NCBI GenBank assembly: GCA_965212115.1 | Contig: CBDBUR010000001.1 | Coordinates: 641,395 to 705,394 of the forward strand | Direction: 5' to 3' | Source: Alphaproteobacteria bacterium | GTDB lineage: Bacteria; Pseudomonadota; Alphaproteobacteria; JAPOUT01; G958296285 | DNA: 64,000 bases | Shown here: in pieces, positions 4,144 through 64,000 of the stretch | Layout: the number at the start of each line of letters is the position of its first letter | How positions within the stretch are numbered: the stretch's first letter is position 1 | The notes under the pieces: generated by a model | What the model was told of the DNA's origin: nothing | The model's database searches: none | What the model saw: only the letters and a program-made list of their open reading frames with translations | Translations under genes and position numbers: made by a program

Positions 4144-7100
4144 TTAGTTTGAGGGCACCAGCGGGGTTGCGATACGACACCGGGGGATTACACAGTGGAA
4201 GTCAATATCAAAACTCGCCGCACTCAGCGTCGCGCCGCCGTTGAACACCGGAACAGCACCGCCAGTGTCAATCCCTAAAATGCCGCTCGCTGTCAATGAG
4301 GTCGATAACGACAAACCGCCCGTCACCGCAATAAATAAATTCGTCGCAGACGATGCAGACGATGAACCCGCCTCTAGCGTCAGCATCCGCGCCGAAAGCC
4401 TCACCACATCCGCGCTAAAATCTAAAGCGCCCGACGCATCCAATTCTAAATTATGCACGCCCGCTTCAATGTTCCCATTAACATCAATCATCATGGCATC
4501 CACCATCACACTCCCATTCACCACGCCCCCATCCGTAAAAGTAAAACGCGTCGCACCCGACGCGCCCAGCGTCAACGAACCCGTGCCAAAATTATACGAC
4601 GCCGTCCCACCGCTCGAACTCGACGCAAATATAATGTCCCCAAACACCTCCGTCGATAAACTTAAATCACGATTCAACGCTATCATCCAATCCCGAACCG
4701 TCAGCAATGATGAACGACGCGTCGCAATCGAAACAGCCGCAGTAGACGACAACACAAATGAATCCTCAACCGCAAAATCCTCCGTCTGATCTAAAAATAT
4801 ACTCCCCGCTGTCAATGTCGGTGAACCCGTCGCGCTAATGCCGCCCGAACCCAACTCCGTCACCGATCGACCACGCACAGTCCTCGTGACGTCAATACCC
4901 GCCGTGATCCACAGCACGCTCGACGCGCCGCTTACCGTGATCGCATCGTTGATCGTTACATCTCCACGACCCTCAATCCGCAGATTAACCGTTGACATCA
5001 CAACCTCCGAACCACTGCTATCACTATCGCTCGTCACAATAATATCGTTGCCACGAACAAAACGCTCACCGCTCGCCCCCGTGAACGATAATCCACCCGC
5101 CGCTGACAAAGTCAAATTACCCGTGCCTGTATCAATATTACGCCCGACAACCAAAACACCGCTAGACACAATCTCTACATCAATACCCGAACGAACCATC
5201 CACCCCTCAACCTCCTGCATCCCCGCACCGCTATAATTCACAGCCAGACCTGTCAAACCCCCGCGAAAAATAACAGGCACCGTTCCATCAAAAACTTCCC
5301 CCTGACTAAATGACAGCTCACCCGCCGTTATCGATAACGTCGGCGTCGTCACACCCCGACGCGTCCGCGTCGGAAAATCAAGCGCGCCCGCAGCCGTAAA
5401 AGACACAGAGCCCGAACCCACATTCAGCAGCGCACGAACCATCAAATCGCCCGACGACACAACACGCACCGCTTGATCACTACCACGCCGCGGCGCACGA
5501 CGCGATGTCATAGATACTTCAGCACCACTTAAATCAATCGACCGCGTCGACGAAAACCTCAACTCGCTGCGACTGCCCGACGCCGTTAAAGTTAAATCTC
5601 CCGCCGTTAGCAAACTCGTACCCACCGTCAAATTGCCCGTCGCAATGATCGATACCGCCAAAGTCCCCACACTCGGCTCAAGACGAGTCGTCCCATCAGA
5701 ACCAAACTCGTCCGCTGTCAAAACTACGCTCACACCACGCAACTCCGTCGCCAGCGCCGTCCCTACAGTGATAACTCCAAAATTCTCCTCAACATTCGTC
5801 ACTGCCATCCCGTCCATCATCGTCTCGACCGTCTCCGACGCGCCCGCCTCTAAAGTCAGATTGCCACGACCCGATGTCAGAGGACCATTCAATGTCAAGT
5901 TCCCTCTCGCACGTACGGTCACATTCTCACGACGACGGTGCGTCTCAAGATCCCCAGTACTCCTCAAACTGATGTTCTCTCCGCGCAATGTCCGTGAACC
6001 GCTAAATCTCACCCGATCCGCCGTCAAAACTAAATCACCTGTCGCTTCAATGTTCGTGCCAATCGTGAGATCACCTGACGCTTCAACCGTTAAAGCCTCC
6101 GCCATCACTGCGTTGCCAAGTAAATTAATGCCAGCACCGCCTAATGTCCGCGTCCCCGTCAAAACGACGTCGCCATTATTCGCCAATGTCCGCGTCCGGC
6201 GACCCACACGCGCGCGACGCGTCCCAAAACCCGCCTCCAAACGCAAATTACCCGTCCCAGAATTGAGGTGCGCCCCAATCGTCAGATCAAACGAAGTCCG
6301 TACAACAACATCACCCGCCAAACCCGTCGCTGTCGGCCCATCGCCAAACAACATGATCGTCTCCGCATCCAACTCAACCGTTTCAATGAAATTGATCGTC
6401 CCTGAATTGCTCGTCCCCGAGTCAGGGACATCATAACCCGCTTCAAGAATCAATGAACGACCATTGCTCCGTAAGCCTCGAAGATCCGTCGAAACCAAAA
6501 CAAGATTGCCGCTCACCGATAAATCCCCTGACGCACGAACCACCAAACGCGCGCCTGACACCACCATCCAAGCCCCAACCGGCTGCGACGACGACGACAA
6601 CGCGTTGAATTCAAGCTCCGCAACATTGGGCTCAAAATTAGTAAAATTAGCCGCTTCAAAAGGAAGCATCGAAATTAAGCGCAGCCCCAAGCCAGACATA
6701 ACATTCGAGACGCCATCCCCCGCTACCATGAAACTATTCGCCCTCAAAACAACCGCACGTGATCCCTGACCATCAAAACGCAGCTCCCCTGTCTCTCCCG
6801 CTACCGTGCTCGCGCCTGCCGTCAGCCCCAAAACCCCCGACGTCGATATGTCCGCATTTACTTCTAAATCGCCCTGCGCCGTGATCGTTAAGTTTTGACC
6901 AAACGGCGATGACACCGCTCCATGCGCGTCCAAAATAATATCACCGCCGCTCAATACAAGCGGCGCCGGGCCAGTGAAATTGATCAAACCGGGATTGCGA
7001 ACCTGAACTTCAACCTGCTCACCCATTTCGTTCGTCATCATCATCGCCATCGTGCCCCGTCCAGCCTCAAGCGTTAGGTCCCCTGCGCCAAGCGCAAGCG

Positions 7101-10100
7101 AGCTGCCCACCACCACATTGCCCCGCGCGCGAACCCCTAGACCAGCGTCGCCCGAAGACGTCGCCAACGTCACCATCCAATCATGAACCGTCTGATCCGA
7201 AGTCGATGTCGTCACAAACTCTATCTGACCAACAGACGTCGTCGTCGTCGTCTTAAATGGATTCGTCGCCGAAGCCGCCGCCCAAACACTCGACGACACC
7301 AATCGCAATGTCTGACCGCTCGACGCCGCTGGCGATGATGTCGCCGTCAAGCTCAACGCCCCTCCAGTCAAAACCGTCAGACGCGATGAATTGAAATTGA
7401 TCGCACCCGCCGACGCCGTCAGACTTATATTGTTCGAACCCGCATTAATATCGCTGTTGACATTTACATCGCCCGTCAAAGCCGTGATCGAAACCACCCC
7501 GGCGCTCTGCTCAGGCGCTAAATCACCCGTCAATGTCACACTCGACCCGCTCAATGTCCGCGCCCCCGTCAACGTCAACGCGCCATCATTCGCTACACTG
7601 CGCGTCCGACCGCGAACACGAACACGACGCGTCCCAAAGCCCGCTTCCAAAGTCAGCGCTCCATCTCCTGTTAGATCAGCACCAACCGTTAGATCGCCTC
7701 GCGCTCTGATCCTCAACGCAAAACCGCTCGGCGATGACGCCCGCGTCGAAAGCAACGTCACTTCCGAACCCTCCAGCGCGCGAACCATATCTGCGTCCAC
7801 CGTCCCAAAAGTGATCGCACCCGTGCCCCCATTATAGCCCGCTTCCAAAATTAAACCCCGTCCATAGATCAAATCATTCGCTACAACAACATCGCCCGCG
7901 CCGCGAACCGCTAGCGCTGATCCCGAAGAATTCGCTCGCGATACCATCCACGCCTGAACCCCCTGCGCCGCTGTCGCCGTCGTGATGAACTCCAGCTGGC
8001 CAACATTCGTGGCAACATTAAATGGATCAGACGCCACTGCCTCTTCCCATACCGTCGCGCGACGCAGCCCAACTCCTCGACCCTCTACACTCGGCCGACG
8101 ATCAGCCGTCAGCTCCAGCGCCGAGCCCGTCAACGTCACCAGGCGATCAGGACTGAAACGAATCTGACCCGAACGCGCCGAACGCGTCGCCGTCCCTGCC
8201 GTCAAGCTCAAGGCCCCCGCGCCCGCATCAATATCGGCATGGACAAGCAAGTTGCCCCCTGCCGTGATCGTTAAATCTTGACCAAACGGGGCCGGTGCCT
8301 TCACGCCGCCATCAACAGCTAAACCAGCCGTCAAGGACACATCATTGCCGATCAATGTCAGCGCCGATGATCCCGTGAAATTAATCGCCCCTGACCCATC
8401 CCCCATGCCCGCCTCCAACGTCAGGTTGCGCGCAGACGCCAGCTCAATCGATACACCAACATTTACATCGCCCACGGCGCGAATAATTAAATGCTGCGCG
8501 CTCACCGCTGATACCATCCAAGGCTGAACAACTAATGCCGACGAGGACGTCGAAACCAATTCCAACGTCCCCCCAGAGGGCAACGTCACAACACCAAAGC
8601 GATTGCTCGTCACAAACACCGACGCCTGCGCTAAGCTGATACGACCCGCCGAAAGCGACGAACCCGGCGCCGAAGAACTCAAAACCTCGCCAATGCCCGC
8701 CGTCAAAACCAAATTGCCGCGCAAAACACTCCGCCGAGAAACACGCCGAACTAGATTAAGCGCCGCGCTCACCTGCAATGTCCCCAATGCCGTGATCGTC
8801 AAAGAACGACCACTGCCCGCTTCCGCCGATGCCTCCGCAATCGTCGTCACATTCGAAGTTAACGCGATATTCGTGCCTCTCAAACTCGTCGTCCGGCTCC
8901 TCCCAAAACTAATCGCGCCGCCGGTCGTGCTCACCATCAAATTCCCCGCGCCTACATCTATGCTCGTGGCAATCGAAACAGCCCCTGTCCCTGTCACAGT
9001 CAAATCTTGGCCGCTCGGCTGATCCAACAAATCACGCGACGAGGTCAGCGAAATCGCCGCCCCTGACAAGGACGACGCCTGATCTGACGACCACATAATC
9101 CGACCTGTTCTCCGCCGCGCCGAGGCCGAAAGCGTTAAATCGCCCGCACCCGCATTGACACGCGCCCCAATCGTCAGATCTCCCGACAAAGCCCTGATCG
9201 TAATGTCAAAATTGTTGATGCCTGCCGCTGGCGTCGCCGCTCCTTTATCTGACAGCAAATTCACATTGTTTCCCTCTAAACGGCGCGTCTCGCCAGTCGC
9301 CGCCATGAAGTTTAGCGCTCCCGTCGTGCTGCCATCACCGGCAACCAAAACCAAATCACGCCCTCCAAGCACAACGTCGCGATCCACCACCAGATCTCCG
9401 CCCGTGCGCACCGTCAAATGACGACGCCTGGAAGTCCGACGATCGCTCACCAAAGACACCATCCACTCGTGCAGCGTCTGCGACGCGCTCGACGCCGATA
9501 TAAACTCAACCCCGCCGGTGTTCAGCCTAATATTCATGAAAGGATTGCTCGCGCCAAAACCTGCCGCCTGCCTCAAACGCAACGTCCCAACCGAAAGAAC
9601 CGTGTTCGAACCTTCGATCGTATTGCTGCCGGCGCTTAAATCTAAAGTGCCGCGACCCAAATTTAAATTGGCTGACAAGGTCATCGTCCCCGACGCCACA
9701 ATCGTCAAATTACCATTGCTGCCGCGACCCGGCAAAGCGCCATCCGATGTCAGAATAATATCAGCTCCGCTCAAAACCGCGCCGCTGCCAAAACTGAGAA
9801 CGCCCGTCTCGCGCGTGCCTGTCCCCGCTCCAGCCTCAAGCATCAAATTGCCGCTGCCCGCATTCATATGCGTGTTCACTCGTAAACCGCGCAGCGCCAC
9901 AACTCTCAACAAAGCATCGCTCGCCGAAGGCATCTCAACTGCGCCCGCTTCATCACGAACCGTGTCACCGGTTAAAGTGATGACATCCCCGGTCAAGAGA
10001 CGCGCCCCTGCAAAATTGATCACACCAATATTCCCAACACGGCGACGACCAACACGCGTCGTCCCCGTGCCTGCTGTCAAAACCAAATCTCCTGTCCCCG

Positions 10101-12308
10101 TATCGAGGTCAACCCCCACTTCAATATCGCCGAGCGCGATTACGCGCAAACGCCGACCGCTCGCAGGCGACGCCGCTCCGCCTTGCAGCTGAACATCATC
10201 TCCGCGAACCTCTACATCTCGCGCCGTGCTCAGCAAGATCGTCCCGCCTGCCGTCAAAACTACATCCCCCGTACCCGCGTTTAAGTGCGCCGCTAACGTT
10301 AAATCTCCCGAAGCCTCAACTGTCAAATCCTGATTGCTCGCCGCAGGCAGCGCTCCGCGACGCGGATCCGCACTCAACTCTATCATCGCACCCGTCAAAC
10401 GCGTCGCCGCATCCCGGCGCAGCTGCAAAACACCCATGTCGCGGCTGCCCAAACCCGCGCCCGCTGACAAAACTAGATCCCCGCTCGTCAATATATCCGT
10501 GCTCACACTCAATCCGCGACGCGCCACAACACTCACCGACTCCGTGCTCGCGCGAGATGTGCCGCCCGCATCCCCGATCAACACGATGTTCAAACCATTG
10601 AGAACCGTCTCAACAGAATCCCCCGCGCTCGAAACACCCAAATACAGCGAACCCGCATTCACCTGCGTCGTGCGGCCCACGCGCGTGTTCAAACCTCCGA
10701 TCAAAGTCAAACTCCCCGTCCCCGCATTCAAATGACCCAGAACCGTCAGATCATTGCGCGCCCGAACCGTCAATGAGCGGTTCGACGCCGATGCCGGCGC
10801 ACCGCGACCCGTCAACATGATCTCCCCGCCATTCACAACCCGCGTCGCGCCGCCAAATACCAATGTCGCGCCGCTCAAAGCAACCTGACCTGTCCCTGCA
10901 TTGACGCTCGCATCAATCCGCAAATCGCCCGTCGCCGCAATCGTCAAATCACGACCGCCCGTCGTGATCGTCCCCGATGATACCAACGTAATGTCAGCGC
11001 CGACAAAACGATCCGCTGCCGTCTCTAGAATGATCAACCGACGCCGCGACGCCGCTCTCAACGTCAAAGACCCAGCTCCTAGGTCAATCGCCGCGTCCAA
11101 AATAATGTTGCCTCCTGTAGATTCCAGCCACAATGACCGATCCATAACTGACCCCATCCACGCATAATAACGCTGGTTGCCTGTCGCAATCACACGAAGC
11201 TCTCCAGACACAAAACTCGCCGGCTGTTGATCTGTAAACAGCGATCCATCCTGACGCACAATAATCTGATCTGCCGCCATCACTCGATCGCCGGCTACTT
11301 CTATTGTCCGCGCGCGCAGCGAAAGAACTGAACTCATCTCATCTCCAGACATCGAACCCAAACGCAGATCCGAACTGATCTCCAGATTGGTAAACGCCCG
11401 GATCGTCAAATTATGCGACCCCGCCATGCTCACCGACGCATCCCCGTCGCTTTCAAAAATGATGTTCCTGCCCGTCAGTTCAACCGGCGCGCTCGTCGCA
11501 AACGACAGCCCTCCAACACCCACGCTCGACGCCACACCCGCGCGCAACGTCAAAACGCCCGCGCGGCTGCGCGACGTGCTCGCGCCCGTGTGCAAAGACG
11601 CATTGACAACCAAATCCCTCTGCGCTGAAACCGTCAATGACTGACGACCCGCCCGAGGCAACGACGACGACGTCAGCATGATGTTATCGCCTGACAATTG
11701 CGTCGCCCTATTCGTCCTAAACTGCAGCGCACCCCCTGAGGCCAACGTCAGATCCCCAGCAGCGCCGGTATCTATGTTCGTGTTGATGGTCAAATTACCC
11801 GTGGCCGTGACCGTCAAAGCCTGATTGCTCGCCGTCGGGTTAGCCCCACCGGTCAAAGTGATCACAGAACCGCTCAACACCACCGCACCATTGCGAACTG
11901 TCGTGTCAGAGGCTGTGCCGCCGCCAAAATTTAAAGCACCCCCAGCGATTAAGCTCAGATTGCCTTCCCCAGTGCCAAAACTGCCGGTCAAGGTCAAGCC
12001 GCCGCGCGCACGGATCAACGCCGCGCCCATATTATCGCTCGCTAGATCCACCGCGCCCGCCGTCAGCCTGACGACACCTCCGTTCAACGTGATCGAACGC
12101 TGCGCATCAAAGTCTATCCCGCCGACCGCCGCCAATGTCAAATTGCCCGCCCGAGTGTCAAGACGCCCTCGGCTGTCAAGGCCAATGCTCGTGTTTAGGA
12201 GAATATTACCTGTCGCTGTCAACGTCACAGCGCGGCGGTTCGTCGAAATGCCGCCGCGTGAACCCGTCGTCAACGTGATGTCCGCTGCTAAAATCTCCGT
12301 CGCCGCAG
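4144..12308 (-). repeat. copy A of a ~8.2 kb near-identical direct repeat (3' end of gene 1), paired with 53949-62086
   Basis: Track ORFs on the mirror strand match copy B at a constant offset of 49,778 nt. ORFs 6464, 7391, 7982, 8603, 9155, 9418, 9518, 10334, 11387 and 11413 are letter-for-letter identical to 56242, 57169, 57760, 58381, 58933, 59196, 59296, 60112, 61165 and 61191. Scattered substitutions occur near both ends of the repeat. A 9-bp indel and different C-terminal tails shift the offset to 49,805 nt at the stop codons. Confidence 0.85.
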
Positions 12309-15300
12309 ACCCAAACACAATATTGTTCCCCTCTAAAACTAAAGACCGAGACCCAACAGCCACACTCTCAGCAGAAACCACAACACTGCGATTGACTGAA
12401 ACTACCCGAACAATAAACGAACTCGAGTCGCTTGACACAGGCGCAAGAAGTGTCGCATGCAAAGTCTGATTGCTCGTCCCTGTCGAAATGAACGAAACTC
12501 CAGCGCGCGCCGATAACACCGCCCCTAGTGCTCCACTGCCAAAAGACGCCTGCTGGCGCAACGTGATCATACCACCGCTCAGCGTCAGCGTAGCCCCAGG
12601 CGTCGAGGCTGTAAACATGATCGCGCCACGACGCGACGTTAGAGACAAAGAACCCGTCCCAACATCAATGTTGCCTGTAATCGTCAGGCTGTCTGCCGCA
12701 AACGTCAGATCATAATTGTTCGCGCTCGTATCAAGTGCACCCAAAGTCAGAGCCTCAAGACTCCCCGCCACTAAACCCGCGCTGCCCGTGTAAGTCGGAA
12801 CCACACCCCCCAACGTCAAAGCGCCGCGACCTACATCAATGAGCGCGCCAAGATTGAGCGTCGCAACCGAAAGCGTCAGATCCGCGTCGCTCGGCTCCGG
12901 CGCTGCGTTCGCTACAAGCGTCAACGCCGCCGCCGTCAAAGTCGTCGGGCGCGATGAATTGAAATTGATCGATCCTTCATTGTTTGTCCCTGATCCCGCC
13001 GTCAACGCCAAATCACCCGTCCCAACATTAATATCAGTGTTGATGTTCAAATCCCCCGAAGCCGTCACCGTTAAAGCGTTGTTGCTCACCGTCGGTGCCG
13101 CATCCCCCGTCAACGTGATCGCACCACCGATTAAACTCGAGGCCGTACTCACCGTCGCATCAAAATTGACCACACCTGTATCATTGCCATTACCCGCCTC
13201 CAACGTCACAGCCCCCGAACCAAAATCTCGCGCTCCGCTCAAGGTCACATCACCCGCCGCGCGCAATACAAAATCAGAGCCCGAACTCGTCGCCAAAGTC
13301 GGCATCCAGGCTTGTACCGCCTGCGATCCGCTCGCCGTCGTGATGAACTCAAGATCACTCGCCGACGTCGACGCATGACCAACAAAAGGACTGCTCGAGC
13401 CAAACAAAATGCCTGACATCAATGTCAGACTCTGCGCACGCGACGCTGGGGCTGTGTCCGATGTCAATGTCAGCGCACCGCCTGAAGTCAGCACCACCGC
13501 GCGCGACGCATCAAACTCGATCGCACCCGTCGTCGTCCCCATGCCTGCCGTGAGCGCAAGCGTCGCCGCGCTCAAGTTCGTGTTGAGGTTGATCGCGCCG
13601 CTCGCCGTCAGCGTGAGCCCCCGCGTCCCCAGATTAACCGTCGCAACCGCCGTGTTCGTCAACGTGATCGACGACGCTGTGATCGTCGTCGACGCGCCGG
13701 TCGCAAATGTGATGTTCCGATTGCGCGTACGACGATTGGTGTTTTGTCCTGCAACCAACTCAAGCGCTCCCGTGCCAAAATCAAGCGCGCTCGCAGCCAC
13801 ATTCAGCTGACCCCCAACCTCCAGCGACAAACCCCGACCCAAAACCACCATCCACGCAAGCAAATCTTGTCGGCTGCGACCACCATACAATAAACTCAAA
13901 GAGCCTACCGTTAAAGTCGACGCCGGAGACCGCACAAAAGGCTGATCCGACATGAACTCTAAACTCAGCGCTGTCAACGTGCGGCCGCTGCCAAAATTCG
14001 TGTTCCTATTACTTTCAAAATTCACCGTGCGCAATGACAACACTCCGCCCGCTCGACCAACATTAATGTCTGCGTCGATCAACAAAGCGCGGCGCGCACG
14101 GATCGCCACCATGATCGCTTCGCTCGGCGCTGTCGGCTGACCCACAGCAAGCAAAGAAACATTGTTCGCGTCTATGCTCGTCGCGCCCGTGAAGTTGATC
14201 GAACCGCCTGCAAAAACCACCGGCGTCGTCGTCGCGGCCGCTGGTGCGCTCAAAGTGAGATTATGGCGGCTTGGATTGCCAGCAACAAAATCCCCGCTAA
14301 GCGACAAAGCTCCGACCGTCGCTGTCAGACGCAGGTTGCGATTGAAACTCACACTCTGCGCGCTGATCGAAAGTACTCCCGCCGAAATAACTCCCAGCGC
14401 GCCGCCCAAAGTCAGCTCTCCATCTGCCATGATCGTCAGCGCGCGAGATCCAATAGACACGCTGCCCGCGATGATCGAAATCTCCGACGCTTCTATCACA
14501 ATCTCTCCGTCGCCCGCAAAAGACAAAACACCCGAACCCGCATTTAACTCAATCCTCTCACTCGCGCGAAGCTCCGAAGGCGCCACAAATGATCCCCCAG
14601 GAATCAGCGCAATCTCTTCTGCTATCAAATCAACCAGCTCAAACCAAGCGTGATCAGTCTGGTCAGCTTCGCCCCTATAAAAAACAAGCGGCAGAACATC
14701 GGTAGGAAGCGTGAAAGTCGCCGGCGCGCTCGGGCCAAAGAGAGCTTGCTGCTGTATCAAAAGAACCTGCGCCGCTTCGATCTCCACCCCGGAGCGGAAA
14801 GCAATGGCAGTGTCACCTCCCCCTTCAAGAGTGAGTTCGCCGTCACCGATGGCAATGTCATCCACAGTCAAATCGTTCGCCGCAGTAATCGTGAGGTTGG
14901 CACCATCGCTTCTCGTGATCGCACTGGTGATGGTAATGTCGGTGGCGCGCAACTGACGGACAGCGCCGATGATCTCAATGAAGGTGCCGCTTACCGCCGC
15001 CGATAAGGTGAGATCGCCGTCGCCGAGATCTATATCGCCATTGATCTTTATCGTGCTGTTATTTGCAGGCGTAGTCGCATCCACAGCGCCATCAACCACG
15101 ATGACCAGATTTGCCGCCGTCGTCGTCGTGATGTCACCGGTGAGATCAACCCGATCGGCAGATAATGTCACCGTCGCTGCCACCAGCGAGGAGGAAGTCC
15201 CTGTCATCGGCGCGGTGAGCACGACCCTCCTGCCGCCCAAAGTGATGACGCCTGCGCTTCTCGTGAGGTTGCCCCCAACCATAATCGGGCAACTCGCGCA

Positions 15301-53948: not shown

Positions 53949-56900
53949 TTAGGGCGTTGTGATGCTGCATTGGGTCATGCAGTGGAAGTCAATATCAAAA
54001 CTCGTAGCGCTCAGCGTCGCGCCGCCATTGAACATCGGAACAGCACCACCAGTGTCAATCCCTAAAATGCCGCTCGCTGTCAATGAGGTCGATAACGACA
54101 AACCGCTCGTCGCCACAACAAATAAATTAACCGCAGACGATGAACCCGCCTCGAGCGTCAGCATCCGCGCCGAAAGCCTCACCACATCCGCGCTAAAATC
54201 TAAAGCGCCCGACGCATCCAATTCTAAATTATGCACGCCCGCTTCAATGTTCCCATTAACCTCAATCATCATGGCATCCACCATCACACTCCCATTCACC
54301 ACGCTCGCATCCGTAAAAGTAAAACGCGTCGCACCCGACGCAGCCAACGTCAGCGAACCCGTGCCAAAATTATACGACGCCGTCCCAACGCTCGAACTCG
54401 ACGCAAATATAATGTCCCCAAACACCTCCGTCGATAAACTTAAATCACGATTCAACGCTATCATCCAATCTCGAACCGTCAGCAATGATGAACGACGCGT
54501 CGTAATCGAAACAGCCGCAGTAGACGACAGCACAAATGAATCCTCAACCGCAAAATCCTCCGTCTGATCTAAAAATATACTCCCCGCTGTCAATGCCGGT
54601 GAACCCGTCGCGCTAATGCCGCCCGAACCAAACTCCGTCACCGATCGACCACGCACAGTCCTCGTGACGTCAAAACCCGCCGTGATCCGCAACTCGCTCG
54701 ACGCGCCGCTCACCGTGATCGCATCGTTGATCGTGACATCTCCACGACCCTCAATCCGCAGATTAACCGATGACATCACAACCTCCGAACCACTGCTATC
54801 ACTATCGCTCGTCACAATAATATCGTTGCCACGAACAAAACGCTCACCGCTCGTCCCCGTGAACGATAATCCACCCGCCGCTGATAAAGTCAAATTACCC
54901 GTGCCTGTATCAATATTACGCCCGATAACCAAAACACCGCTAGACACAATCTCTACATCAATACCCGAACGAACCATCCACCCCTCAACCTCCTGCATCC
55001 CCGCACCGCTATAATTCACAGCCAGACCTGTCAAACCCCCGCGAAAAATAACAGGCACCGTTCCATCAAAAACTTCCCCCTGACTAAATGACAGCTCACC
55101 CGCCGTTATCGATAACGTCGGCGTCGTCACACCCCGACGCGTCCGCGTCGGAAAATCAAGCGCGCCCGCAGCCGTAAAAGACACAGAGCCCGAACCCACA
55201 TTCAGCAGCGCGCGAACCATCAAATCGCCCGACGACACAACACGCACCGCTTGATCACTACCACGCCGCGGCGCACGACGCGATGTCATAGATACTTCAG
55301 CACCACTTAAATCAATCGACCGCGTCGACGAAAACCTCAACTCGCTGCGACTGCCCGACGCCGTCAAAGTTAAATCTCCCGCCGTTAGCAAACTCGTACC
55401 CACCGTCAAATTGCCCGTCGCAATGATCAATACCGCCAAAGTCCCCACACTCGGCTCAAGACGAGTCGTCCCATCAGAACCAAACTCGTCCGCTGTCAAA
55501 ACTACGCTCACACCACGCAACTCCGTCGCCAGCGCCGTCCCTACAGTGATAACTCCAAAATTCTCCTCAACATTCGTCACAGCCATCCCGTCCATCATCG
55601 TCTCGACCGTCTCCGACGCGCCCGCCTCTAAAGTCAGATTGCCACGACCCGATGTCAGAGGACCATTCAATGTCAAGTTCCCTCTCGCACGTACGGTCAC
55701 ATTCTCACGACGACGGTGCGTCTCAAGATCCCCAGTACTCCTCAAACTGATGTTCTCTCCGCGCAATGTCCGTGAACCGCTAAATCTCACCCGATCCGCC
55801 GTCAAAACTAAATCACCTGTCGCTTCAATGTTCGTGCCAATCGTGAGATCACCTGACGCTTCAACCGTTAAAGCCTCCGCCATCACTGCGTTGCCAAGTA
55901 AATTAATGCCAGCACCGCCTAATGTCCGCGTCCCCGTCAAAACGACGTCGCCATTATTCGCCAATGTCCGCGTCCGGCGACCCACACGCGCGCGACGCGT
56001 CCCAAAACCCGCCTCCAAACGCAAATTACCCGTCCCAGAATTGAGGTGCGCCCCAATCGTCAGATCAAACGAAGTCCGTACAACAACATCACCCGCCAAA
56101 CCCGTCGCTGTCGGCCCATCGCCAAACAACATGATCGTCTCCGCATCCAACTCAACCGTTTCAATGAAATTGATCGTCCCTGAATTGCTCGTCCCCGAGT
56201 CAGGGACATCATAACCCGCTTCAAGAATCAATGAACGACCATTGCTCCGTAAGCCTCGAAGATCCGTCGAAACCAAAACAAGATTGCCGCTCACCGATAA
56301 ATCCCCTGACGCACGAACCACCAAACGCGCGCCTGACACCACCATCCAAGCCCCAACCGGCTGCGACGACGACGACAACGCGTTGAATTCAAGCTCCGCA
56401 ACATTGGGCTCAAAATTAGTAAAATTAGCCGCTTCAAAAGGAAGCATCGAAATTAAGCGCAGCCCCAAGCCAGACATAACATTCGAGACGCCATCCCCCG
56501 CTACCATGAAACTATTCGCCCTCAAAACAACCGCACGTGATCCCTGACCATCAAAACGCAGCTCCCCTGTCTCTCCCGCTACCGTGCTCGCGCCTGCCGT
56601 CAGCCCCAAAACCCCCGACGTCGATATGTCCGCATTTACTTCTAAATCGCCCTGCGCCGTGATCGTTAAGTTTTGACCAAACGGCGATGACACCGCTCCA
56701 TGCGCGTCCAAAATAATATCACCGCCGCTCAATACAAGCGGCGCCGGGCCAGTGAAATTGATCAAACCGGGATTGCGAACCTGAACTTCAACCTGCTCAC
56801 CCATTTCGTTCGTCATCATCATCGCCATCGTGCCCCGTCCAGCCTCAAGCGTTAGGTCCCCTGCGCCAAGCGCAAGCGAGCTGCCCACCACCACATTGCC

Positions 56901-59900
56901 CCGCGCGCGAACCCCTAGACCAGCGTCGCCCGAAGACGTCGCCAACGTCACCATCCAATCATGAACCGTCTGATCCGAAGTCGATGTCGTCACAAACTCT
57001 ATCTGACCAACAGACGTCGTCGTCGTCGTCTTAAATGGATTCGTCGCCGAAGCCGCCGCCCAAACACTCGACGACACCAATCGCAATGTCTGACCGCTCG
57101 ACGCCGCTGGCGATGATGTCGCCGTCAAGCTCAACGCCCCTCCAGTCAAAACCGTCAGACGCGATGAATTGAAATTGATCGCACCCGCCGACGCCGTCAG
57201 ACTTATATTGTTCGAACCCGCATTAATATCGCTGTTGACATTTACATCGCCCGTCAAAGCCGTGATCGAAACCACCCCGGCGCTCTGCTCAGGCGCTAAA
57301 TCACCCGTCAATGTCACACTCGACCCGCTCAATGTCCGCGCCCCCGTCAACGTCAACGCGCCATCATTCGCTACACTGCGCGTCCGACCGCGAACACGAA
57401 CACGACGCGTCCCAAAGCCCGCTTCCAAAGTCAGCGCTCCATCTCCTGTTAGATCAGCACCAACCGTTAGATCGCCTCGCGCTCTGATCCTCAACGCAAA
57501 ACCGCTCGGCGATGACGCCCGCGTCGAAAGCAACGTCACTTCCGAACCCTCCAGCGCGCGAACCATATCTGCGTCCACCGTCCCAAAAGTGATCGCACCC
57601 GTGCCCCCATTATAGCCCGCTTCCAAAATTAAACCCCGTCCATAGATCAAATCATTCGCTACAACAACATCGCCCGCGCCGCGAACCGCTAGCGCTGATC
57701 CCGAAGAATTCGCTCGCGATACCATCCACGCCTGAACCGCCTGCGCCGCTGTCGCCGTCGTGATGAACTCCAGCTGGCCAACATTCGTGGCAACATTAAA
57801 TGGATCAGACGCCACTGCCTCTTCCCATACCGTCGCGCGACGCAGCCCAACTCCTCGACCCTCTACACTCGGCCGACGATCAGCCGTCAGCTCCAGCGCC
57901 GAGCCCGTCAACGTCACCAGGCGATCAGGACTGAAACGAATCTGACCCGAACGCGCCGAACGTGTCGCCGTCCCTGCCGTCAAGCTCAAGGCCCCCGCGC
58001 CCGCATCAATATCGGCATGGACAAGCAAGTTGCCCCCTGCCGTGATCGTTAAATCTTGGCCAAACGGGGCCGGTGCCTTCACGCCGCCATCAACAGCTAA
58101 ACCAGCCGTCAAGGACACATCATTGCCGATCAATGTCAGCGCCGATGATCCCGTGAAATTAATCGCCCCTGACCCATCCCCCATGCCCGCCTCCAACGTC
58201 AGGTTGCGCGCAGACGCCAGCTCAATCGATACACCAACATTCACATCGCCCACGGCGCGAATAATTAAATGCTGCGCGCTCACCGCTGATACCATCCAAG
58301 GCTGAACAACTAATGCCGACGAGGACGTCGAAACCAATTCCAACGTCCCCCCAGAGGGCAACGTCACAACACCAAAGCGATTGCTCGTCACAAACACCGA
58401 CGCCTGCGCTAAGCTGATACGACCCGCCGAAAGCGACGAACCCGGCGCCGAAGAACTCAAAACCTCGCCAATGCCCGCCGTCAAAACCAAATTGCCGCGC
58501 AAAACACTCCGCCGAGAAACACGCCGAACTAGATTAAGCGCCGCGCTCACCTGCAATGTCCCCAATGCCGTGATCGTCAAAGAACGACCACTGCCCGCTT
58601 CCGCCGATGCCTCCGCAATCGTCGTCACATTCGAAGTTAACGCGATATTCGTGCCTCTCAAACTCGTCGTCCGGCTCCTCCCAAAACTAATCGCGCCGCC
58701 GGTCGTGCTCACCATCAAATTCCCCGCGCCTACATCTATGCTCGTGGCAATCGAAACAGCCCCTGTCCCTGTCACAGTCAAATCTTGGCCGCTCGGCTGA
58801 TCCAACAAATCACGCGACGAGGTCAGCGAAATCGCCGCCCCTGACAAGGACGACGCCTGATCTGACGACCACATAATCCGACCTGTTCTCCGCCGCGCCG
58901 AGGCCGAAAGCGTTAAATCGCCCGCACCCGCATTGACACGCGCCCCAATCGTCAGATCTCCCGACAAAGCCCTGATCGTAATGTCAAAATTGTTGATGCC
59001 TGCCGCTGGCGTCGCCGCTCCTTTATCTGACAGCAAATTCACATTGTTTCCCTCTAAACGGCGCGTCTCGCCAGTCGCCGCCATGAAGTTTAGCGCTCCC
59101 GTCGTGCTGCCATCACCGGCAACCAAAACCAAATCACGCCCTCCAAGCACAACGTCGCGATCCACCACCAGATCTCCGCCCGTGCGCACCGTCAAATGAC
59201 GACGCCTGGAAGTCCGACGATCGCTCACCAAAGACACCATCCACTCGTGCAGCGTCTGCGACGCGCTCGACGCCGATATAAACTCAACCCCGCCGGTGTT
59301 CAGCCTAATATTCATGAAAGGATTGCTCGCGCCAAAACCTGCCGCCTGCCTCAAACGCAACGTCCCAACCGAAAGAACCGTGTTCGAACCTTCGATCGTA
59401 TTGCTGCCGGCGCTTAAATCTAAAGTGCCGCGACCCAAATTTAAATTGGCTGACAAGGTCATCGTCCCCGACGCCACAATCGTCAAATTACCATTGCTGC
59501 CGCGACCCGGCAAAGCGCCATCCGATGTCAGAATAATATCAGCTCCGCTCAAAACCGCGCCGCTGCCAAAACTGAGAACGCCCGTCTCGCGCGTGCCTGT
59601 CCCCGCTCCAGCCTCAAGCATCAAATTGCCGCTGCCCGCATTCATATGCGTGTTCACTCGTAAACCGCGCAGCGCCACAACTCTCAACAAAGCATCGCTC
59701 GCCGAAGGCATCTCAACTGCGCCCGCTTCATCACGAACCGTGTCACCGGTTAAAGTGATGACATCCCCGGTCAAGAGACGCGCCCCTGCAAAATTGATCA
59801 CACCAATATTCCCAACACGGCGACGACCAACACGCGTCGTCCCCGTGCCTGCTGTCAAAACCAAATCTCCTGTCCCCGTATCGAGGTCAACCCCCACTTC

Positions 59901-62086
59901 AATATCGCCGAGCGCGATTACGCGCAAACGCCGACCGCTCGCAGGCGACGCCGCTCCGCCTTGCAGCTGAACATCATCTCCGCGAACCTCTACATCTCGC
60001 GCCGTGCTCAGCAAGATCGTCCCGCCTGCCGTCAAAACTACATCCCCCGTACCCGCGTTTAAGTGCGCCGCTAACGTTAAATCTCCCGAAGCCTCAACTG
60101 TCAAATCCTGATTGCTCGCCGCAGGCAGCGCTCCGCGACGCGGATCCGCGCTCAACTCTATCATCGCACCCGTCAAACGCGTCGCCGCATCCCGGCGCAG
60201 CTGCAAAACACCCATGTCGCGGCTGCCCAAACCCGCGCCCGCTGACAAAACTAGATCCCCGCTCGTCAATATATCCGTGCTCACACTCAATCCGCGACGC
60301 GCCACAACACTCACCGACTCCGTGCTCGCGCGAGATGTGCCGCCCGCATCCCCGATCAACACGATGTTCAAACCATTGAGAACCGTCTCAACAGAATCCC
60401 CCGCGCTCGAAACACCCAAATACAGCGAACCCGCATTCACCTGCGTCGTGCGTCCCACGCGCGTGTTCAAACCTCCGATCAAAGTCAAACTCCCCGTCCC
60501 CGCATTCAAATGACCCAGAACCGTCAGATCATTGCGCGCCCGAACCGTCAATGAGCGGTTCGACGCCGATGCCGGCGCACCGCGACCCGTCAACATGATC
60601 TCCCCGCCATTCACAACCCGCGTCGCGCCGCCAAATACCAATGTCGCGCCGCTCAAAGCAACCTGACCTGTCCCTGCATTGACGCTCGCATCAATCCGCA
60701 AATCGCCCGTCGCCGCAATCGTCAAATCACGACCGCCCGTCGTGATCGTCCCCGATGATACCAACGTAATGTCCGCGCCGACAAAACGATCCGCTGCCGT
60801 CTCTAGAATGATCAACCGACGCCGCGACGCCGCTCTCAACGTCAAAGACCCAGCTCCTAGGTCAATCGCCGCGTCCAAAATAATGTTGCCACTTCTAGAT
60901 TCCAGCCACAATGACCGATCCGCGACTGACCCCATCCACGCATAATAACGCTGGTTGCCTGTCGCAATCACACGAAGCTCTCCAGACACAAAACTCGCCG
61001 GCTGTTGATCTGTAAACAGCGATCCATCCTGACGCACAATAATCTGATCTGCCGCCATCACTCGATCGCCGGCTACTTCTATTGTCCGCGCGCGCAGCGA
61101 AAGAACTGAACTCATCTCATCTCCAGACATCGAACCCAAACGCAGATCCGAACTGATCTCCAGATTGGTAAACGCCCGGATCGTCAAATTATGCGACCCC
61201 GCCATGCTCACCGACGCATCCCCGTCGCTTTCAAAAATGATGTTCCTGCCCGTCAGTTCAACCGGCGCGCTCGTCGCAAACGACAGCCCTCCAACACCCA
61301 CGCTCGACGCCACACCCGCGCGCAACGTCAAAACGCCCGCGCGGCTGCGCGACGTGCTCGCGCCCGTGTGCAAAGACGCATTGACAACCAAATCCCTCTG
61401 CGCTGAAACCGTCAATGACTGACGACCCGCCCGAGGCAACGACGACGACGTCAGCATGATGTTATCGCCTGACAATTGCGTCGCCCTATTCGTCCTAAAC
61501 TGCAGCGCACCCCCTGAGGCCAACGTCAGATCCCCAGCAGCGCCGGTATCTATGTTCGTGTTGATGGTCAAATTACCCGTGGCCGTGACCGTCAAAGCCT
61601 GATTGCTCGCCGTCGGGTTAGCCCCACCGGTCAAAGTGATCACAGAACCGCTCAACACCACCGCACCATTGCGAGATGTCGTGTCAGAGGCTGTGCCGCC
61701 GCCAAAATTTAAAGCACCCCCAGCGATTAAGCTCAGATTGCCTTCCCCAGTGCCAAAACTGCCGGTCAAGGTCAAGCCGCCGCGCGCACGGATCACCGCC
61801 GTGCCCATATTATCGCTCGCTAGATCCACCGCGCCCGCCGTCAGCCTGACGACACCCCCATTCAACGTGATCGAACGCTGCGCATCAAAGTCTATCCCGC
61901 CGACCGCCGCCAATGTCAAATTGCCCGCCCGAGCATCAAGACGCCCTCGGCTGTCAAGGCCAATGCTCGTGTTCAGGAGAATATTACCTGTCGCTGTCAA
62001 CGTCACAGCGCGGCGGTTCGTCGAAATGCCGCCGCGTGAACCCGTCGTCAACGTGATGTCCGCTGCTAAAATCTCCGTCGCCGCAT
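53949..62086 (-). repeat. copy B of the ~8.2 kb near-identical direct repeat (3' end of gene 3)
   Basis: See copy A. The identity boundary on the mirror strand is at about 62086, where track ORF 61603..62223 diverges from ORF 11825..12469 after 161 identical or near-identical residues. Confidence 0.85.
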
Positions 62087-64000
62087 TGGTGAAAACTATC
62101 GTCCCAGAGGCAGACGCAGTGAAACTACCCAAACCAAAATTATTCGTCGCCGTCGTAATACGGATGTTGCGACCCGAATTCACTGCCAGACTGCGGCCAG
62201 CAACAACCATCCAAGTATTATGAACCGTCTGATCCGATGACGCGCGGCTTGTTAAACTTAATGAGCCCGTCTGCGGCAAGCCCAACGGTGCCGTCATGCC
62301 AAAAACCCCATCCTGTGACAGCGCCACGCGCAACGCCGTTATCGTCGGTACGCCGGTCGCAAAACCGTTGACAATATTACCCGCCGCGCCTTCGCCCGCT
62401 GTCAGGGTCAAGACACCCGTGCCAATATTGATCGCCGTGCCAATATTAATATCGCCGCGCGCGATCAAAGTGAGATTTGCATTGTTGACCTCTCCCGCCA
62501 CCTGCAGATCCGGCGCGACGGCGGCCGTCAAAGTAATCTCCCCAGCGCTGAGCCTCCGATCTCCAGAAAAAATTAACGCCATGCCCGCTGCCAACTCCAG
62601 ATCGTTAGCAACATCAAAATCAGCCGCAATAACCAAATTGCCAGTCGCCATAACGCTCGCTCCATCGCTCAGAATCTCCGCCGCCATCAACGTGATGTTC
62701 GCCGCTGTATTCAGCCCAACCAAGTTCGCATTCAAAGTCACCGCGCCTCCCGCAGCTCTGATCTCCAACCCGCGGCCATCAAGCATAACCATGCCTGCAA
62801 TGATCGAAATCTCCGGCGCTTCCAGAACAATCGTCTCTCCTGTGCCGCCGCCCGCGAACTCGATATTTAGAGCGCCCGCATCTAAAACAATGCTTCTAGA
62901 TGCCTGAATCGTCGAATTAGACCTCCCAGACAAATCAATCGTAAGAACAGTATCGCCATCACCAGGAACAAACACTTCATTTGTCTTCCGCCCCACGGTG
63001 AACCAAACCCCATCACTTGTTGTTGTCCCATCATAAACTTGAGGCTGCGCACCGCCATCAATCATGAAAGTCACACCCACAGGCGGCGTGCTGGGGGTAA
63101 AAGGCGTCGCATCCTGTTCCAAACGAATAAAGCGCGCGATGAAAGCCCGGGTGCCGCTAAAGGTGATCGTGCCGGTCATCGCGCCATCGCCCGCCGTCAA
63201 AACCAGACCGCCATCGCTTGCACTCGCCCCTACACTGTTCACATCGCCCAAATCGATGTCTCCTGCAACTGTCAAATCGCCCGAAGCCTCAACCGTCAAA
63301 TCCGTGTTCATCGTCGTTGTTATAGCGCCTGTCAACACGATATCGCCGCCGTCCAAAATGACCCGCTGCCTGCCTAAAACTATGCCCACTGTCCCGGTTA
63401 TCATGAGCGCGCCTGTGCCAACTTCAACATCACTATTCAGCGTCAAAGTGCCCAATGCCGTGAGCGTCAAAGCAAAATCGCCTGCTGTGAAATCGCCGCT
63501 ATTATCAAACGCACCGATCCTCACGCTATTCGTGCCGCTCGGCGTCATAACGATATTCCCGCCCGACAATATACGCGCCGCAGCCGCCGCGCCGACAATG
63601 TTGACCTCTGTCCCCGTCAAAATGAGATTGCCCGTGCCGAGCGCAATGTCGCTATCAATCGCAATCGCTGCCGCGCTCGTCAAAGTCAAAGACAGCCCGT
63701 CTTCAGACATCCAATCGTAGATGGTTTGCGCCGCGCCGGTGACCAGCTCAAGCTCATTGACCGTGCGCGTGCGCGCAGCAGGGGAAGTCGTCACAGCAGC
63801 CAACGTGAACAAATTATCCGCAAAAGCGCCATCTTGCGTGAGGCTCACACTGTCGGCGGTCAGCATCGGCGCCGTCGTGCCCGTGAGCAAAATGATGTTG
63901 CCGGTCGTGCTGCCGCTGCCCGCCAAAAGCGTCAGGGCACCGCCTGCACCAACATTGATCCCCTCAACGCCCACACTAATATTGCCGGTCGCTTCCAAAA
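53949..64000 (-). CDS. giant TpsA-family exoprotein, C-terminal >=3,349 aa (N-terminus and TPS domain lie beyond the window end); chimera of gene-2-like body and gene-1-type C-terminal cassette
   Basis: Open minus-strand frame from the window edge to a TAA at 53949-53951. The first ~640 visible residues resemble the gene 2 central repeats (IYDWMSEDGLSLTLTSAAAIAIDSDIALGTGNLILTGTEVNIVGAAAAARILSGGNIVMT versus gene 2 IVHDWMVQSGMSLSLMSAAEIVIRRDIDIGAGDLILSAAQINIEGEAQRARSLSGGNIGLT). The last ~2,710 residues are near-identical to gene 1. Ends ..FDIDFHCMTQCSITTP. Confidence 0.85.
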   Translation of the reverse strand, partial: LEATGNISVGVEGINVGAGGALTLLAGSGSTTGNIILLTGTTAPMLTADSVSLTQDGAFADNLFTLAAVTTSPAARTRTVNELELVTGAAQTIYDWMSEDGLSLTLTSAAAIAIDSDIALGTGNLILTGTEVNIVGAAAAARILSGGNIVMTPSGTNSVRIGAFDNSGDFTAGDFALTLTALGTLTLNSDVEVGTGALMITGTVGIVLGRQRVILDGGDIVLTGAITTTMNTDLTVEASGDLTVAGDIDLGDVNSVGASASDGGLVLTAGDGAMTGTITFSGTRAFIARFIRLEQDATPFTPSTPPVGVTFMIDGGAQPQVYDGTTTSDGVWFTVGRKTNEVFVPGDGDTVLTIDLSGRSNSTIQASRSIVLDAGALNIEFAGGGTGETIVLEAPEISIIAGMVMLDGRGLEIRAAGGAVTLNANLVGLNTAANITLMAAEILSDGASVMATGNLVIAADFDVANDLELAAGMALIFSGDRRLSAGEITLTAAVAPDLQVAGEVNNANLTLIARGDINIGTAINIGTGVLTLTAGEGAAGNIVNGFATGVPTITALRVALSQDGVFGMTAPLGLPQTGSLSLTSRASSDQTVHNTWMVVAGRSLAVNSGRNIRITTATNNFGLGSFTASASGTIVFTNAATEILAADITLTTGSRGGISTNRRAVTLTATGNILLNTSIGLDSRGRLDARAGNLTLAAVGGIDFDAQRSITLNGGVVRLTAGAVDLASDNMGTAVIRARGGLTLTGSFGTGEGNLSLIAGGALNFGGGTASDTTSRNGAVVLSGSVITLTGGANPTASNQALTVTATGNLTINTNIDTGAAGDLTLASGGALQFRTNRATQLSGDNIMLTSSSLPRAGRQSLTVSAQRDLVVNASLHTGASTSRSRAGVLTLRAGVASSVGVGGLSFATSAPVELTGRNIIFESDGDASVSMAGSHNLTIRAFTNLEISSDLRLGSMSGDEMSSVLSLRARTIEVAGDRVMAADQIIVRQDGSLFTDQQPASFVSGELRVIATGNQRYYAWMGSVADRSLWLESRSGNIILDAAIDLGAGSLTLRAASRRRLIILETAADRFVGADITLVSSGTITTGGRDLTIAATGDLRIDASVNAGTGQVALSGATLVFGGATRVVNGGEIMLTGRGAPASASNRSLTVRARNDLTVLGHLNAGTGSLTLIGGLNTRVGRTTQVNAGSLYLGVSSAGDSVETVLNGLNIVLIGDAGGTSRASTESVSVVARRGLSVSTDILTSGDLVLSAGAGLGSRDMGVLQLRRDAATRLTGAMIELSADPRRGALPAASNQDLTVEASGDLTLAAHLNAGTGDVVLTAGGTILLSTARDVEVRGDDVQLQGGAASPASGRRLRVIALGDIEVGVDLDTGTGDLVLTAGTGTTRVGRRRVGNIGVINFAGARLLTGDVITLTGDTVRDEAGAVEMPSASDALLRVVALRGLRVNTHMNAGSGNLMLEAGAGTGTRETGVLSFGSGAVLSGADIILTSDGALPGRGSNGNLTIVASGTMTLSANLNLGRGTLDLSAGSNTIEGSNTVLSVGTLRLRQAAGFGASNPFMNIRLNTGGVEFISASSASQTLHEWMVSLVSDRRTSRRRHLTVRTGGDLVVDRDVVLGGRDLVLVAGDGSTTGALNFMAATGETRRLEGNNVNLLSDKGAATPAAGINNFDITIRALSGDLTIGARVNAGAGDLTLSASARRRTGRIMWSSDQASSLSGAAISLTSSRDLLDQPSGQDLTVTGTGAVSIATSIDVGAGNLMVSTTGGAISFGRSRTTSLRGTNIALTSNVTTIAEASAEAGSGRSLTITALGTLQVSAALNLVRRVSRRSVLRGNLVLTAGIGEVLSSSAPGSSLSAGRISLAQASVFVTSNRFGVVTLPSGGTLELVSTSSSALVVQPWMVSAVSAQHLIIRAVGDVNVGVSIELASARNLTLEAGMGDGSGAINFTGSSALTLIGNDVSLTAGLAVDGGVKAPAPFGQDLTITAGGNLLVHADIDAGAGALSLTAGTATRSARSGQIRFSPDRLVTLTGSALELTADRRPSVEGRGVGLRRATVWEEAVASDPFNVATNVGQLEFITTATAAQAVQAWMVSRANSSGSALAVRGAGDVVVANDLIYGRGLILEAGYNGGTGAITFGTVDADMVRALEGSEVTLLSTRASSPSGFALRIRARGDLTVGADLTGDGALTLEAGFGTRRVRVRGRTRSVANDGALTLTGARTLSGSSVTLTGDLAPEQSAGVVSITALTGDVNVNSDINAGSNNISLTASAGAINFNSSRLTVLTGGALSLTATSSPAASSGQTLRLVSSSVWAAASATNPFKTTTTTSVGQIEFVTTSTSDQTVHDWMVTLATSSGDAGLGVRARGNVVVGSSLALGAGDLTLEAGRGTMAMMMTNEMGEQVEVQVRNPGLINFTGPAPLVLSGGDIILDAHGAVSSPFGQNLTITAQGDLEVNADISTSGVLGLTAGASTVAGETGELRFDGQGSRAVVLRANSFMVAGDGVSNVMSGLGLRLISMLPFEAANFTNFEPNVAELEFNALSSSSQPVGAWMVVSGARLVVRASGDLSVSGNLVLVSTDLRGLRSNGRSLILEAGYDVPDSGTSNSGTINFIETVELDAETIMLFGDGPTATGLAGDVVVRTSFDLTIGAHLNSGTGNLRLEAGFGTRRARVGRRTRTLANNGDVVLTGTRTLGGAGINLLGNAVMAEALTVEASGDLTIGTNIEATGDLVLTADRVRFSGSRTLRGENISLRSTGDLETHRRRENVTVRARGNLTLNGPLTSGRGNLTLEAGASETVETMMDGMAVTNVEENFGVITVGTALATELRGVSVVLTADEFGSDGTTRLEPSVGTLAVLIIATGNLTVGTSLLTAGDLTLTASGSRSELRFSSTRSIDLSGAEVSMTSRRAPRRGSDQAVRVVSSGDLMVRALLNVGSGSVSFTAAGALDFPTRTRRGVTTPTLSITAGELSFSQGEVFDGTVPVIFRGGLTGLAVNYSGAGMQEVEGWMVRSGIDVEIVSSGVLVIGRNIDTGTGNLTLSAAGGLSFTGTSGERFVRGNDIIVTSDSDSSGSEVVMSSVNLRIEGRGDVTINDAITVSGASSELRITAGFDVTRTVRGRSVTEFGSGGISATGSPALTAGSIFLDQTEDFAVEDSFVLSSTAAVSITTRRSSLLTVRDWMIALNRDLSLSTEVFGDIIFASSSSVGTASYNFGTGSLTLAASGATRFTFTDASVVNGSVMVDAMMIEVNGNIEAGVHNLELDASGALDFSADVVRLSARMLTLEAGSSSAVNLFVVATSGLSLSTSLTASGILGIDTGGAVPMFNGGATLSATSFDIDFHCMTQCSITTP

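Follow-up and report, generated by a model that had tools for sequence, protein, structure and literature searches.

We analysed a 64,000-nt stretch of DNA from an alphaproteobacterium (NCBI GenBank assembly GCA_965212115.1, contig CBDBUR010000001.1, positions 641,395 to 705,394 of the forward strand; hereafter the window), on which three giant open reading frames (ORFs), genes 1, 2 and 3, lie head-to-tail, all on the minus strand, and in which the 3′ parts of genes 1 and 3 are nearly identical over 8.1 kb. We consider it likely, at a probability of about 0.7, that gene 1 is a mosaic, in which a block of the gene 2/gene 3 lineage was attached through a nonhomologous joint and was later subject to gene conversion. 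A first-pass annotation of the same DNA had named gene 3 as the chimera, with a gene-2-like body fused to a gene-1-type C-terminal cassette; the similarities set out below do not support that polarity. The features on which the argument turns (gene coordinates are those of the ORF list) are:

4144-29967, minus strand: gene 1, 8,607 aa.
30102-53567, minus strand: gene 2, 7,821 aa.
53949 to beyond 64000, minus strand: gene 3, cut by the window end; the visible part is its 3′ 10 kb, 3,349 aa.
4193..12307, minus strand: shared block, gene 1 copy, as delimited by blastn.
53980..62085, minus strand: shared block, gene 3 copy, 8.1 kb or about 2,700 codons.
12307/12308, minus strand: 5′ edge of the block in gene 1, the joint of a gene-1-specific body with a block of gene 2/gene 3 type.
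62085/62086, minus strand: 5′ edge of the block in gene 3, with gene 2 homology continuous through it.
12308..14738, minus strand: segment B, gene-1-specific, directly upstream of the joint, 98.4% identical to the gene at locus L081 (see below).
Gene 1 read as a mosaic: two-partner secretion (TPS) domain, gene-1-specific repeat body, shared 3′ block.

Comparison of gene 3 with gene 1 by blastn gave a single match of 8,115 nt at 99.1% identity (62085..53980 against 12307..4193), and in a global alignment the two proteins were 98.7% identical over the 2,712 aligned residues of the block. The 5′ edge of this match is abrupt: in 30-nt windows identity was 30/30 downstream of it and 3-15/30, the random level, upstream, the change falling within one codon. 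The peptide across the edge reads ..GSFTASASGTIVFTNA|ATEILAADITLTTG in gene 3 and ..SLVLEGNNIVFGSA|ATEILAADITLTTG in gene 1, and the corresponding peptide of gene 2 is ..GDFTAEAARGIVFTNATIIEAGDITLTTG. Indeed, the sharp junction that had been put at ~62086 in gene 3 and ~12250-12350 in gene 1 is real, with block edges at 62085 and 12307; the peptides quoted for it are exact in all three genes, and similarity does not fade gradually across it. At the 3′ end of the block the final 10-16 codons have diverged and the downstream flanks are unrelated. The two copies are direct repeats 49.8 kb apart, and both are intact ORFs, their 46 differing codons being split evenly between synonymous (23) and nonsynonymous (23) changes. 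A simple tandem duplication was rejected, because the copies start 49.8 kb apart, yet have only 8.1 kb in common.

To decide which gene carries the discontinuity we used gene 2 as the outgroup paralog. In global alignments, gene 3 and gene 2 were 50.3% identical upstream of the junction and 48.4% downstream of it, whereas identity between gene 1 and gene 2 rose from 27.3% to 48.3%, with the step exactly at the junction; between gene 1 and gene 3 it rose from 32.7% to the 98.7% given above. Upstream of 62086 gene 3 is, as had been claimed, nearer to gene 2 than to gene 1. BLAST gave the same picture for this upstream part, with 43.7% identity and 405 bits for gene 3 against gene 2, and at most 27% and at most 158 bits for gene 3 against gene 1; the latter identity is the background found between any two repeat segments. 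In a windowed comparison gene 3 was collinear with gene 2 over its full visible length, at 38-55%, with no step or change of offset at the junction, and a 15-nt exact match of the two genes, GTTTTCACCAATGCG, spans the junction itself. Collinearity of gene 1 with gene 2 is limited to the TPS domain (about 75%) and the part after gene 1 aa 5886; between these regions, matches were non-collinear, at 24-39%. The order of modules points the same way: landmarks of the 'EFITT' type occur in gene 1 just upstream of the joint, in segment B, and in genes 2 and 3 only late in the block, so that in gene 1 the module order restarts at the joint.

Related proteins added to this comparison. An exhaustive HMMER search returned P0020 (the 4,937-aa product called for gene 3 in the source genome, of which the window covers aa 1589-4937), P0021 (which is gene 2), P0022, P0023, P0024 and P0032; a cluster look-up gave P0121 and P0120, and P0120 led to locus L081. 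For the more distant family members P0022, P0023, P0024 and P0032 the best alignments begin 115-190 aa before the gene 3 junction point and continue past it, and the collinearity of P0121 with gene 2 extends for about 6,300 aa. Since the jump in identity between gene 1 and gene 2 lies exactly at the junction, the discontinuity belongs to gene 1; since gene 3 and gene 2 are collinear across it, the gene 2/gene 3 lineage is the one to which the block is native, which makes gene 1 the mosaic.

The motif at which the joint lies bears on its origin. The three proteins consist of modules of variable length, each with the landmark 'L.L.T....Q.VH.WM' (24 in gene 1, 25 in gene 2 and 8 in the visible part of gene 3), and self-similarity offsets showed no fixed repeat period. 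The first-pass annotation had placed the breakpoint inside a conserved IVF..A repeat. In its strict form, I[VIL]F..A, the motif is found only once or twice per protein and is not a repeat; a degenerate element, h-x-F ... h-x-[AGS]-x-x-h-x-h, does recur (gene 1, 31 times; gene 2, 42; gene 3, 19). Its usual place is 41-55 aa after the 'Q.VH.WM' landmark, and the joint is at that position; in gene 1 a degenerate landmark, NQTLHATLL, lies about 56 aa upstream of the joint element. At the nucleotide level the shared I-V-F is encoded by ATA GTT TTC in gene 3 and by ATT GTG TTT in gene 1, so that three of three wobble bases differ, and upstream of the junction the 30-nt window comparison of the two genes revealed no nucleotide homology. 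Together these observations do not demonstrate a crossover inside a conserved DNA motif, as had been proposed, and a crossover within nucleotide identity at I-V-F was rejected on account of the wobble differences at every codon. A short patch of identity in the replaced gene 1 sequence, just downstream of the edge, is possible.

We propose that a copy of the gene 2/gene 3-lineage block became the 3′ part of gene 1, and that the 5′ joint (12307/12308) would have arisen by a non-homologous event or one with very short homology. Such an event could have been a deletion or unequal exchange that joined an upstream tpsA body to a gene-3-like duplicate or, alternatively, one-sided copying with its anchor in the homologous 3′ end. 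The joint would have been retained because it is in frame and preserves the register of the repeating module. RecA-type interlocus gene conversion between the direct repeats would afterwards have homogenised the interior of the block and left its edges more diverged.

The differences between the two copies bear on this last step. The tracts at issue are:

55582..57738, minus strand: longest identical tract, gene 3 copy, 2,157 nt.
58243-60149, minus strand: second identical tract, gene 3 copy, 1,907 nt.
53980..54926, minus strand: 3′-terminal zone, gene 3 copy, diverged from gene 1 by up to about 4%.

The copies differ at 64 substitution sites, which are clustered, and they share a third perfect tract of 750 nt. 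In a permutation test the longest tract had a mean of 590 nt and a maximum of 1,584 nt, and none of 10,000 permutations reached 2,157 nt. Genes 1 and 3 differed by 2.2% over the first 411 nt and by 4.0% over the last 946 nt, against 0.25% across the 6.7-kb interior. Thus the block has two of the features by which gene conversion is recognised: near-identity confined to a tract with discrete edges, in paralogs that are diverged elsewhere, and identical fragments longer than chance allows. An in-frame 9-nt indel was also seen in the diverged 3′ zone (gene 1 4356-4364, with an extra S-S-A, against gene 3 54143).

Copies in other assemblies show a third such feature, and also show that neither joint is peculiar to the window. 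P0121 comes from another assembly; it has 6,333 aa, includes the gene-3-type junction and shares 99.2% identity with P0020. Positions 1082-11624 of L081 match window 14738-4193 at 99.26%, and the gene-1-type joint in L081 is identical over the 180 nt compared. Each joint type is therefore found in two independent assemblies and, as misassemblies arise within repeats, both joints are real. At the sites where genes 1 and 3 differ, L081 formed 16 runs against 37.7 ± 4.2 expected (p<1e-5), that is, its block is made of alternating gene-1-like and gene-3-like tracts, the mosaic pattern that gene conversion leaves. Moreover, gene 1 and L081 differ by 0.28% in the interior of the block, versus 1.6% in the adjacent unique segment B, and P0121 likewise alternates, at the protein level, between gene-3-like and gene-1-like patches. 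Clustered differences and patchwork copies are standard signatures of interlocus gene conversion and, as far as sequence comparison can tell, indicate that exchange is probably continuing. This part of the recombination reading in the first-pass annotation thus stands, unlike its polarity.

Several further observations concern these copies. L081 has the gene 1 state at the 9-nt indel. Its similarity to gene 1 begins abruptly at 14738 (gene 1 aa ~5076); upstream of this it is ~38% and out of register, so that 14738 is a further breakpoint and the shared blocks, of 10.5 kb and 8.1 kb, are nested and anchored at the 3′ end. At L081 11758-12399 the gene with the gene-1-type joint is followed not by lepA but by the start of another tpsA gene, whose nucleotide identity is 84% to the start of gene 2 and 73% to that of gene 1; gene order or the number of paralogs therefore differs between strains. 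Between gene 3 and P0121, 21 of 40 amino acid differences fall in a 464-aa patch that straddles the junction (gene 3 aa 312-775, window 61674-63065), with only 2 in the 1,899 aa before it, and beyond the junction, on its downstream side, gene 3 of the window is the copy that departs from gene 1, L081 and P0121. Such a pattern hints that gene 3 was converted separately, from a third copy of gene 3 type. The called start of P0020 is an internal methionine and P0020 has no TPS secretion domain, whereas its ortholog P0121 extends in frame at least 1,393 residues beyond that start; gene 3 in the source genome may be 5′-truncated or disrupted, or merely miscalled. When gene 3 aa 1-1300 and the gene 1 joint region were used as queries in a word-indexed protein search, only repeat-level matches, at 26-35%, came back, and the window's own proteins were not among them.

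The opposite polarity, in which gene 3 was gene-2-like and had its 3′ 8.1 kb overwritten by a cassette native to gene 1, up to the conserved motif, seems unlikely to us. It accounts for the gene-2-like upstream part of gene 3 and for the sharp boundary; protein-level conservation of the I-V-F / ATxIxAxxITL element extends to every family member, and the edge could lie where the similarity of gene 1 to gene 2 begins because a conversion tract runs no further than the limit of homology. Under it, however, the block should not be as gene-2-like as the body of gene 3 (48.4% against 50.3%), without change of offset and with a 15-nt gene 2/gene 3 match, nor should the step in similarity to the outgroup be located in gene 1; in addition, replacement in register would need homology between genes 1 and 3 upstream, where identity is at the random level. 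That one copy or one joint was made by the assembly, through a repeat-induced misjoin or a duplicated consensus, we regard as very improbable. Repeats of 8 kb at 99% identity are certainly difficult to assemble, the contigs used for comparison are metagenomic, one of them at only 5x, and polishing could yield long perfect tracts. Yet the copies differ at 64 substitution sites and by an in-frame 9-nt indel while both stay open, misjoins occur within identical sequence rather than at its edge, the joints recur independently in L081 (gene 1 type) and P0121 (gene 3 type), and the end of gene 1 adjoins the unique lepA gene.

A different agent of homogenisation is also conceivable, namely exchange between strains (for example, by transformation) with shuffling of alleles, or a dedicated cassette-variation system, in place of conversion within one genome. 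The pairwise distances of gene 1, gene 3 and L081 in the block interior are about equal (0.25-0.28%), the nested 3′-anchored blocks have differing 5′ breakpoints (12307 and 14738), and gene 3 as called, without a TPS domain, is reminiscent of silent donor cassettes. Nevertheless, the window holds no recombinase, invertase, diversity-generating retroelement or immunity gene, direct 8-kb repeats 50 kb apart suffice for RecA-dependent conversion, and there are just two assemblies to compare; we find this explanation doubtful. A more specific form of the idea, which we put forward as a long shot, is that the tandem array would be a large-cassette variation system for giant secreted adhesins, with the TPS-less gene 3 copy and the nested 8-10 kb 3′ blocks as donors that repeatedly replace the sequence for the C-terminal ~2,700 residues in expressed TpsA genes. 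If so, strains would differ in the pairing of protein body and C-terminal end.

The reading of gene 1 as the mosaic has points against it too. Its polarity draws on gene 2 as the single outgroup paralog and on a single close ortholog, and the comparison set contained no gene 1 ortholog with a different C-terminus. If the C-terminal module is family-wide, a native block of the ~48% kind could have started at the same point in gene 1. A weak, degenerate, in-register module (NQTLHATLL ... NNIVFGSA) is found upstream in gene 1, and deep homology upstream of its joint is possible. The 5′ part of gene 3 lies beyond the window. Lastly, polishing could have made some of the perfect tracts in the window assembly, and part of the L081 and P0121 mosaic could be a consensus artefact of collapsed repeats, the L081 contig having 5x coverage and P0121 also coming from a metagenome assembly.

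Genes 1 and 2 begin with the TPS domain PF05860 (gene 1 aa 38-280, E=7.5e-18; gene 2 aa 32-269, E=1.6e-18), and gene 1 also matched TIGR01901; they thus encode TpsA-type exoproteins of two-partner (type Vb) secretion. For the repeat region of ~8,200 aa neither Pfam nor NCBIfam held a family, and the module architecture is apparently an undescribed repeat type for TpsA passengers. An AlphaFold2 model of 400 aa across the gene 1 joint was all-beta, with short strands, at a predicted local distance difference test (pLDDT) score of 67 overall and 74-84, the highest values, around the joint. In Foldseek against PDB the best matches were beta-solenoids (CsgA, tapirin, EtpA, HMW1, HxuA), none of them significant (E >= 0.23). 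The passenger modules are long and degenerate and are predicted to be all-beta. The products of genes 1 and 3 would differ in their proximal bodies and have the C-terminal ~2,700 residues in common. Every family member, distant ones too, finishes with F-D-x-[DN]-F-x-C-x(3-5)-C and a short tail; these terminal cysteine-pair ends are at 4144-4200 in gene 1, 30102-30160 in gene 2 and 53949-53990 in gene 3.

We also considered whether the shared block might be a toxin cassette of the kind exchanged in contact-dependent growth inhibition (CDI) or through tpsC genes. VENN, VDNN and ELYN/QLYN motifs were found in none of the three proteins, the C-terminal 618 aa contained no Pfam toxin or pretoxin domain, and the whole block matched no Pfam family. 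No immunity ORF was present in the 381 nt 3′ of gene 3, where only ORFs of 26-44 aa precede the start of gene 2; a 71-aa antisense ORF in the gap between genes 3 and 2 overlaps the 5′ end of gene 2. Exchange of such a cassette was rejected for lack of a VENN motif, a toxin domain and an immunity ORF.

A second shared block may be noted at the other end of the family. The N-terminal TPS region of gene 2 (window 52098-53420, minus strand, aa ~50-490) matches P0022 at 96-100% protein identity. This fourth TpsA paralog, with 7,703 aa, is encoded on the 711-kb source contig as well. Identity of the two drops to background at aa ~490-500, so that this block, at the 5′ end, also has a sharp edge.

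Apart from the giant genes, the 64-kb window contains only two genes:

113-2293, plus strand: pheT.
2294-4093, plus strand: lepA, convergent on gene 1, with 50 nt between the gene ends.

No tpsB gene lies between the giant genes within these 64 kb; one upstream of gene 3, beyond the window, is possible. Among the matches listed in a non-exhaustive scan, LepA was at most 68% identical to alphaproteobacterial GTDB genomes, and the host thus appears to be an alphaproteobacterium of a lineage without a close genome representative. The lepA loci of 80 alphaproteobacterial genomes (LepA at most 68% identical) had no related giant gene beside lepA, and synteny is therefore unusable for polarising the event; nor did scans of GTDB genomes and JGI metagenomes, for which gene 3 was the query, find a related giant gene.

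Reassigning the recombinant gene from gene 3 to gene 1 matters for the annotation and the evolutionary reading of the locus. The locus also illustrates that multi-kilobase blocks can be swapped and homogenised between very long ORFs of degenerate repeats, with the frames remaining open and the modules in register, and it reveals an uncharacterised family of TpsA exoproteins of 5,000-8,600 aa whose repeats neither Pfam nor NCBIfam detects. As the recombination process is well known, the locus is of modest general significance.

Among known systems, the FhaB/FhaS paralogs of Bordetella, reportedly the subject of work by Julio and Cotter in 2005 (cited in PMC5422565), offer one parallel. Another is found within the Alphaproteobacteria, in the multicopy fhaB/hecB 'fha-repeats' of Bartonella (PMC2847970). 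In Bartonella, and reportedly in Bordetella, there are several paralogs of the filamentous haemagglutinin (FHA) type per genome, their copy number and content vary between close strains, and recombination between copies has been proposed, all of which resembles the present case. Unlike the proteins here, of up to 8,607 aa and with repeats unknown to Pfam and NCBIfam, those of Bartonella and, reportedly, of Bordetella have 2,000-4,000 aa and known FHA repeat families; the genes here also form a head-to-tail array, with no tpsB between them in 64 kb. The tpsA genes of Neisseria meningitidis trade their 3′ ends with tpsC cassettes that lie downstream (Arenas et al. 2013, PMC3848433), and CDI systems have orphan cdiA-CT/cdiI cassettes (reviewed in PMC5422565). 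As in these systems, 3′ parts of TpsA-family genes recombine here among tandem paralogs, and some copies are without the N-terminal secretion domain. In contrast, the part exchanged in the tpsA/tpsC and CDI systems is a short variable toxin domain that follows a VENN-type motif and is paired with an immunity gene, whereas the shared part here consists of ~2,700 aa of conserved structural repeats, with no VENN/ELYN motif, toxin or immunity ORF.

The closest likeness is to interlocus gene conversion and concerted evolution of duplicated bacterial genes, a general process (PMC6053082, PMC3924837). As in such systems, diverged paralogs share a long tract of near-identity, their differences are clustered, with the edges more diverged than the interior, the copy in another strain is a mosaic of the two, and the paralogs are closer within the block than the two assemblies are in the adjacent unique segment. 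At 8.1 kb the tract here is of unusual length, it is contained entirely within giant ORFs, and one of its edges abuts non-homologous sequence, which argues that the founding event was not a simple homologous conversion. Taken as a whole, the locus is a fresh example of an ordinary process, interlocus gene conversion with segmental mosaicism, in genes for paralogous surface proteins.

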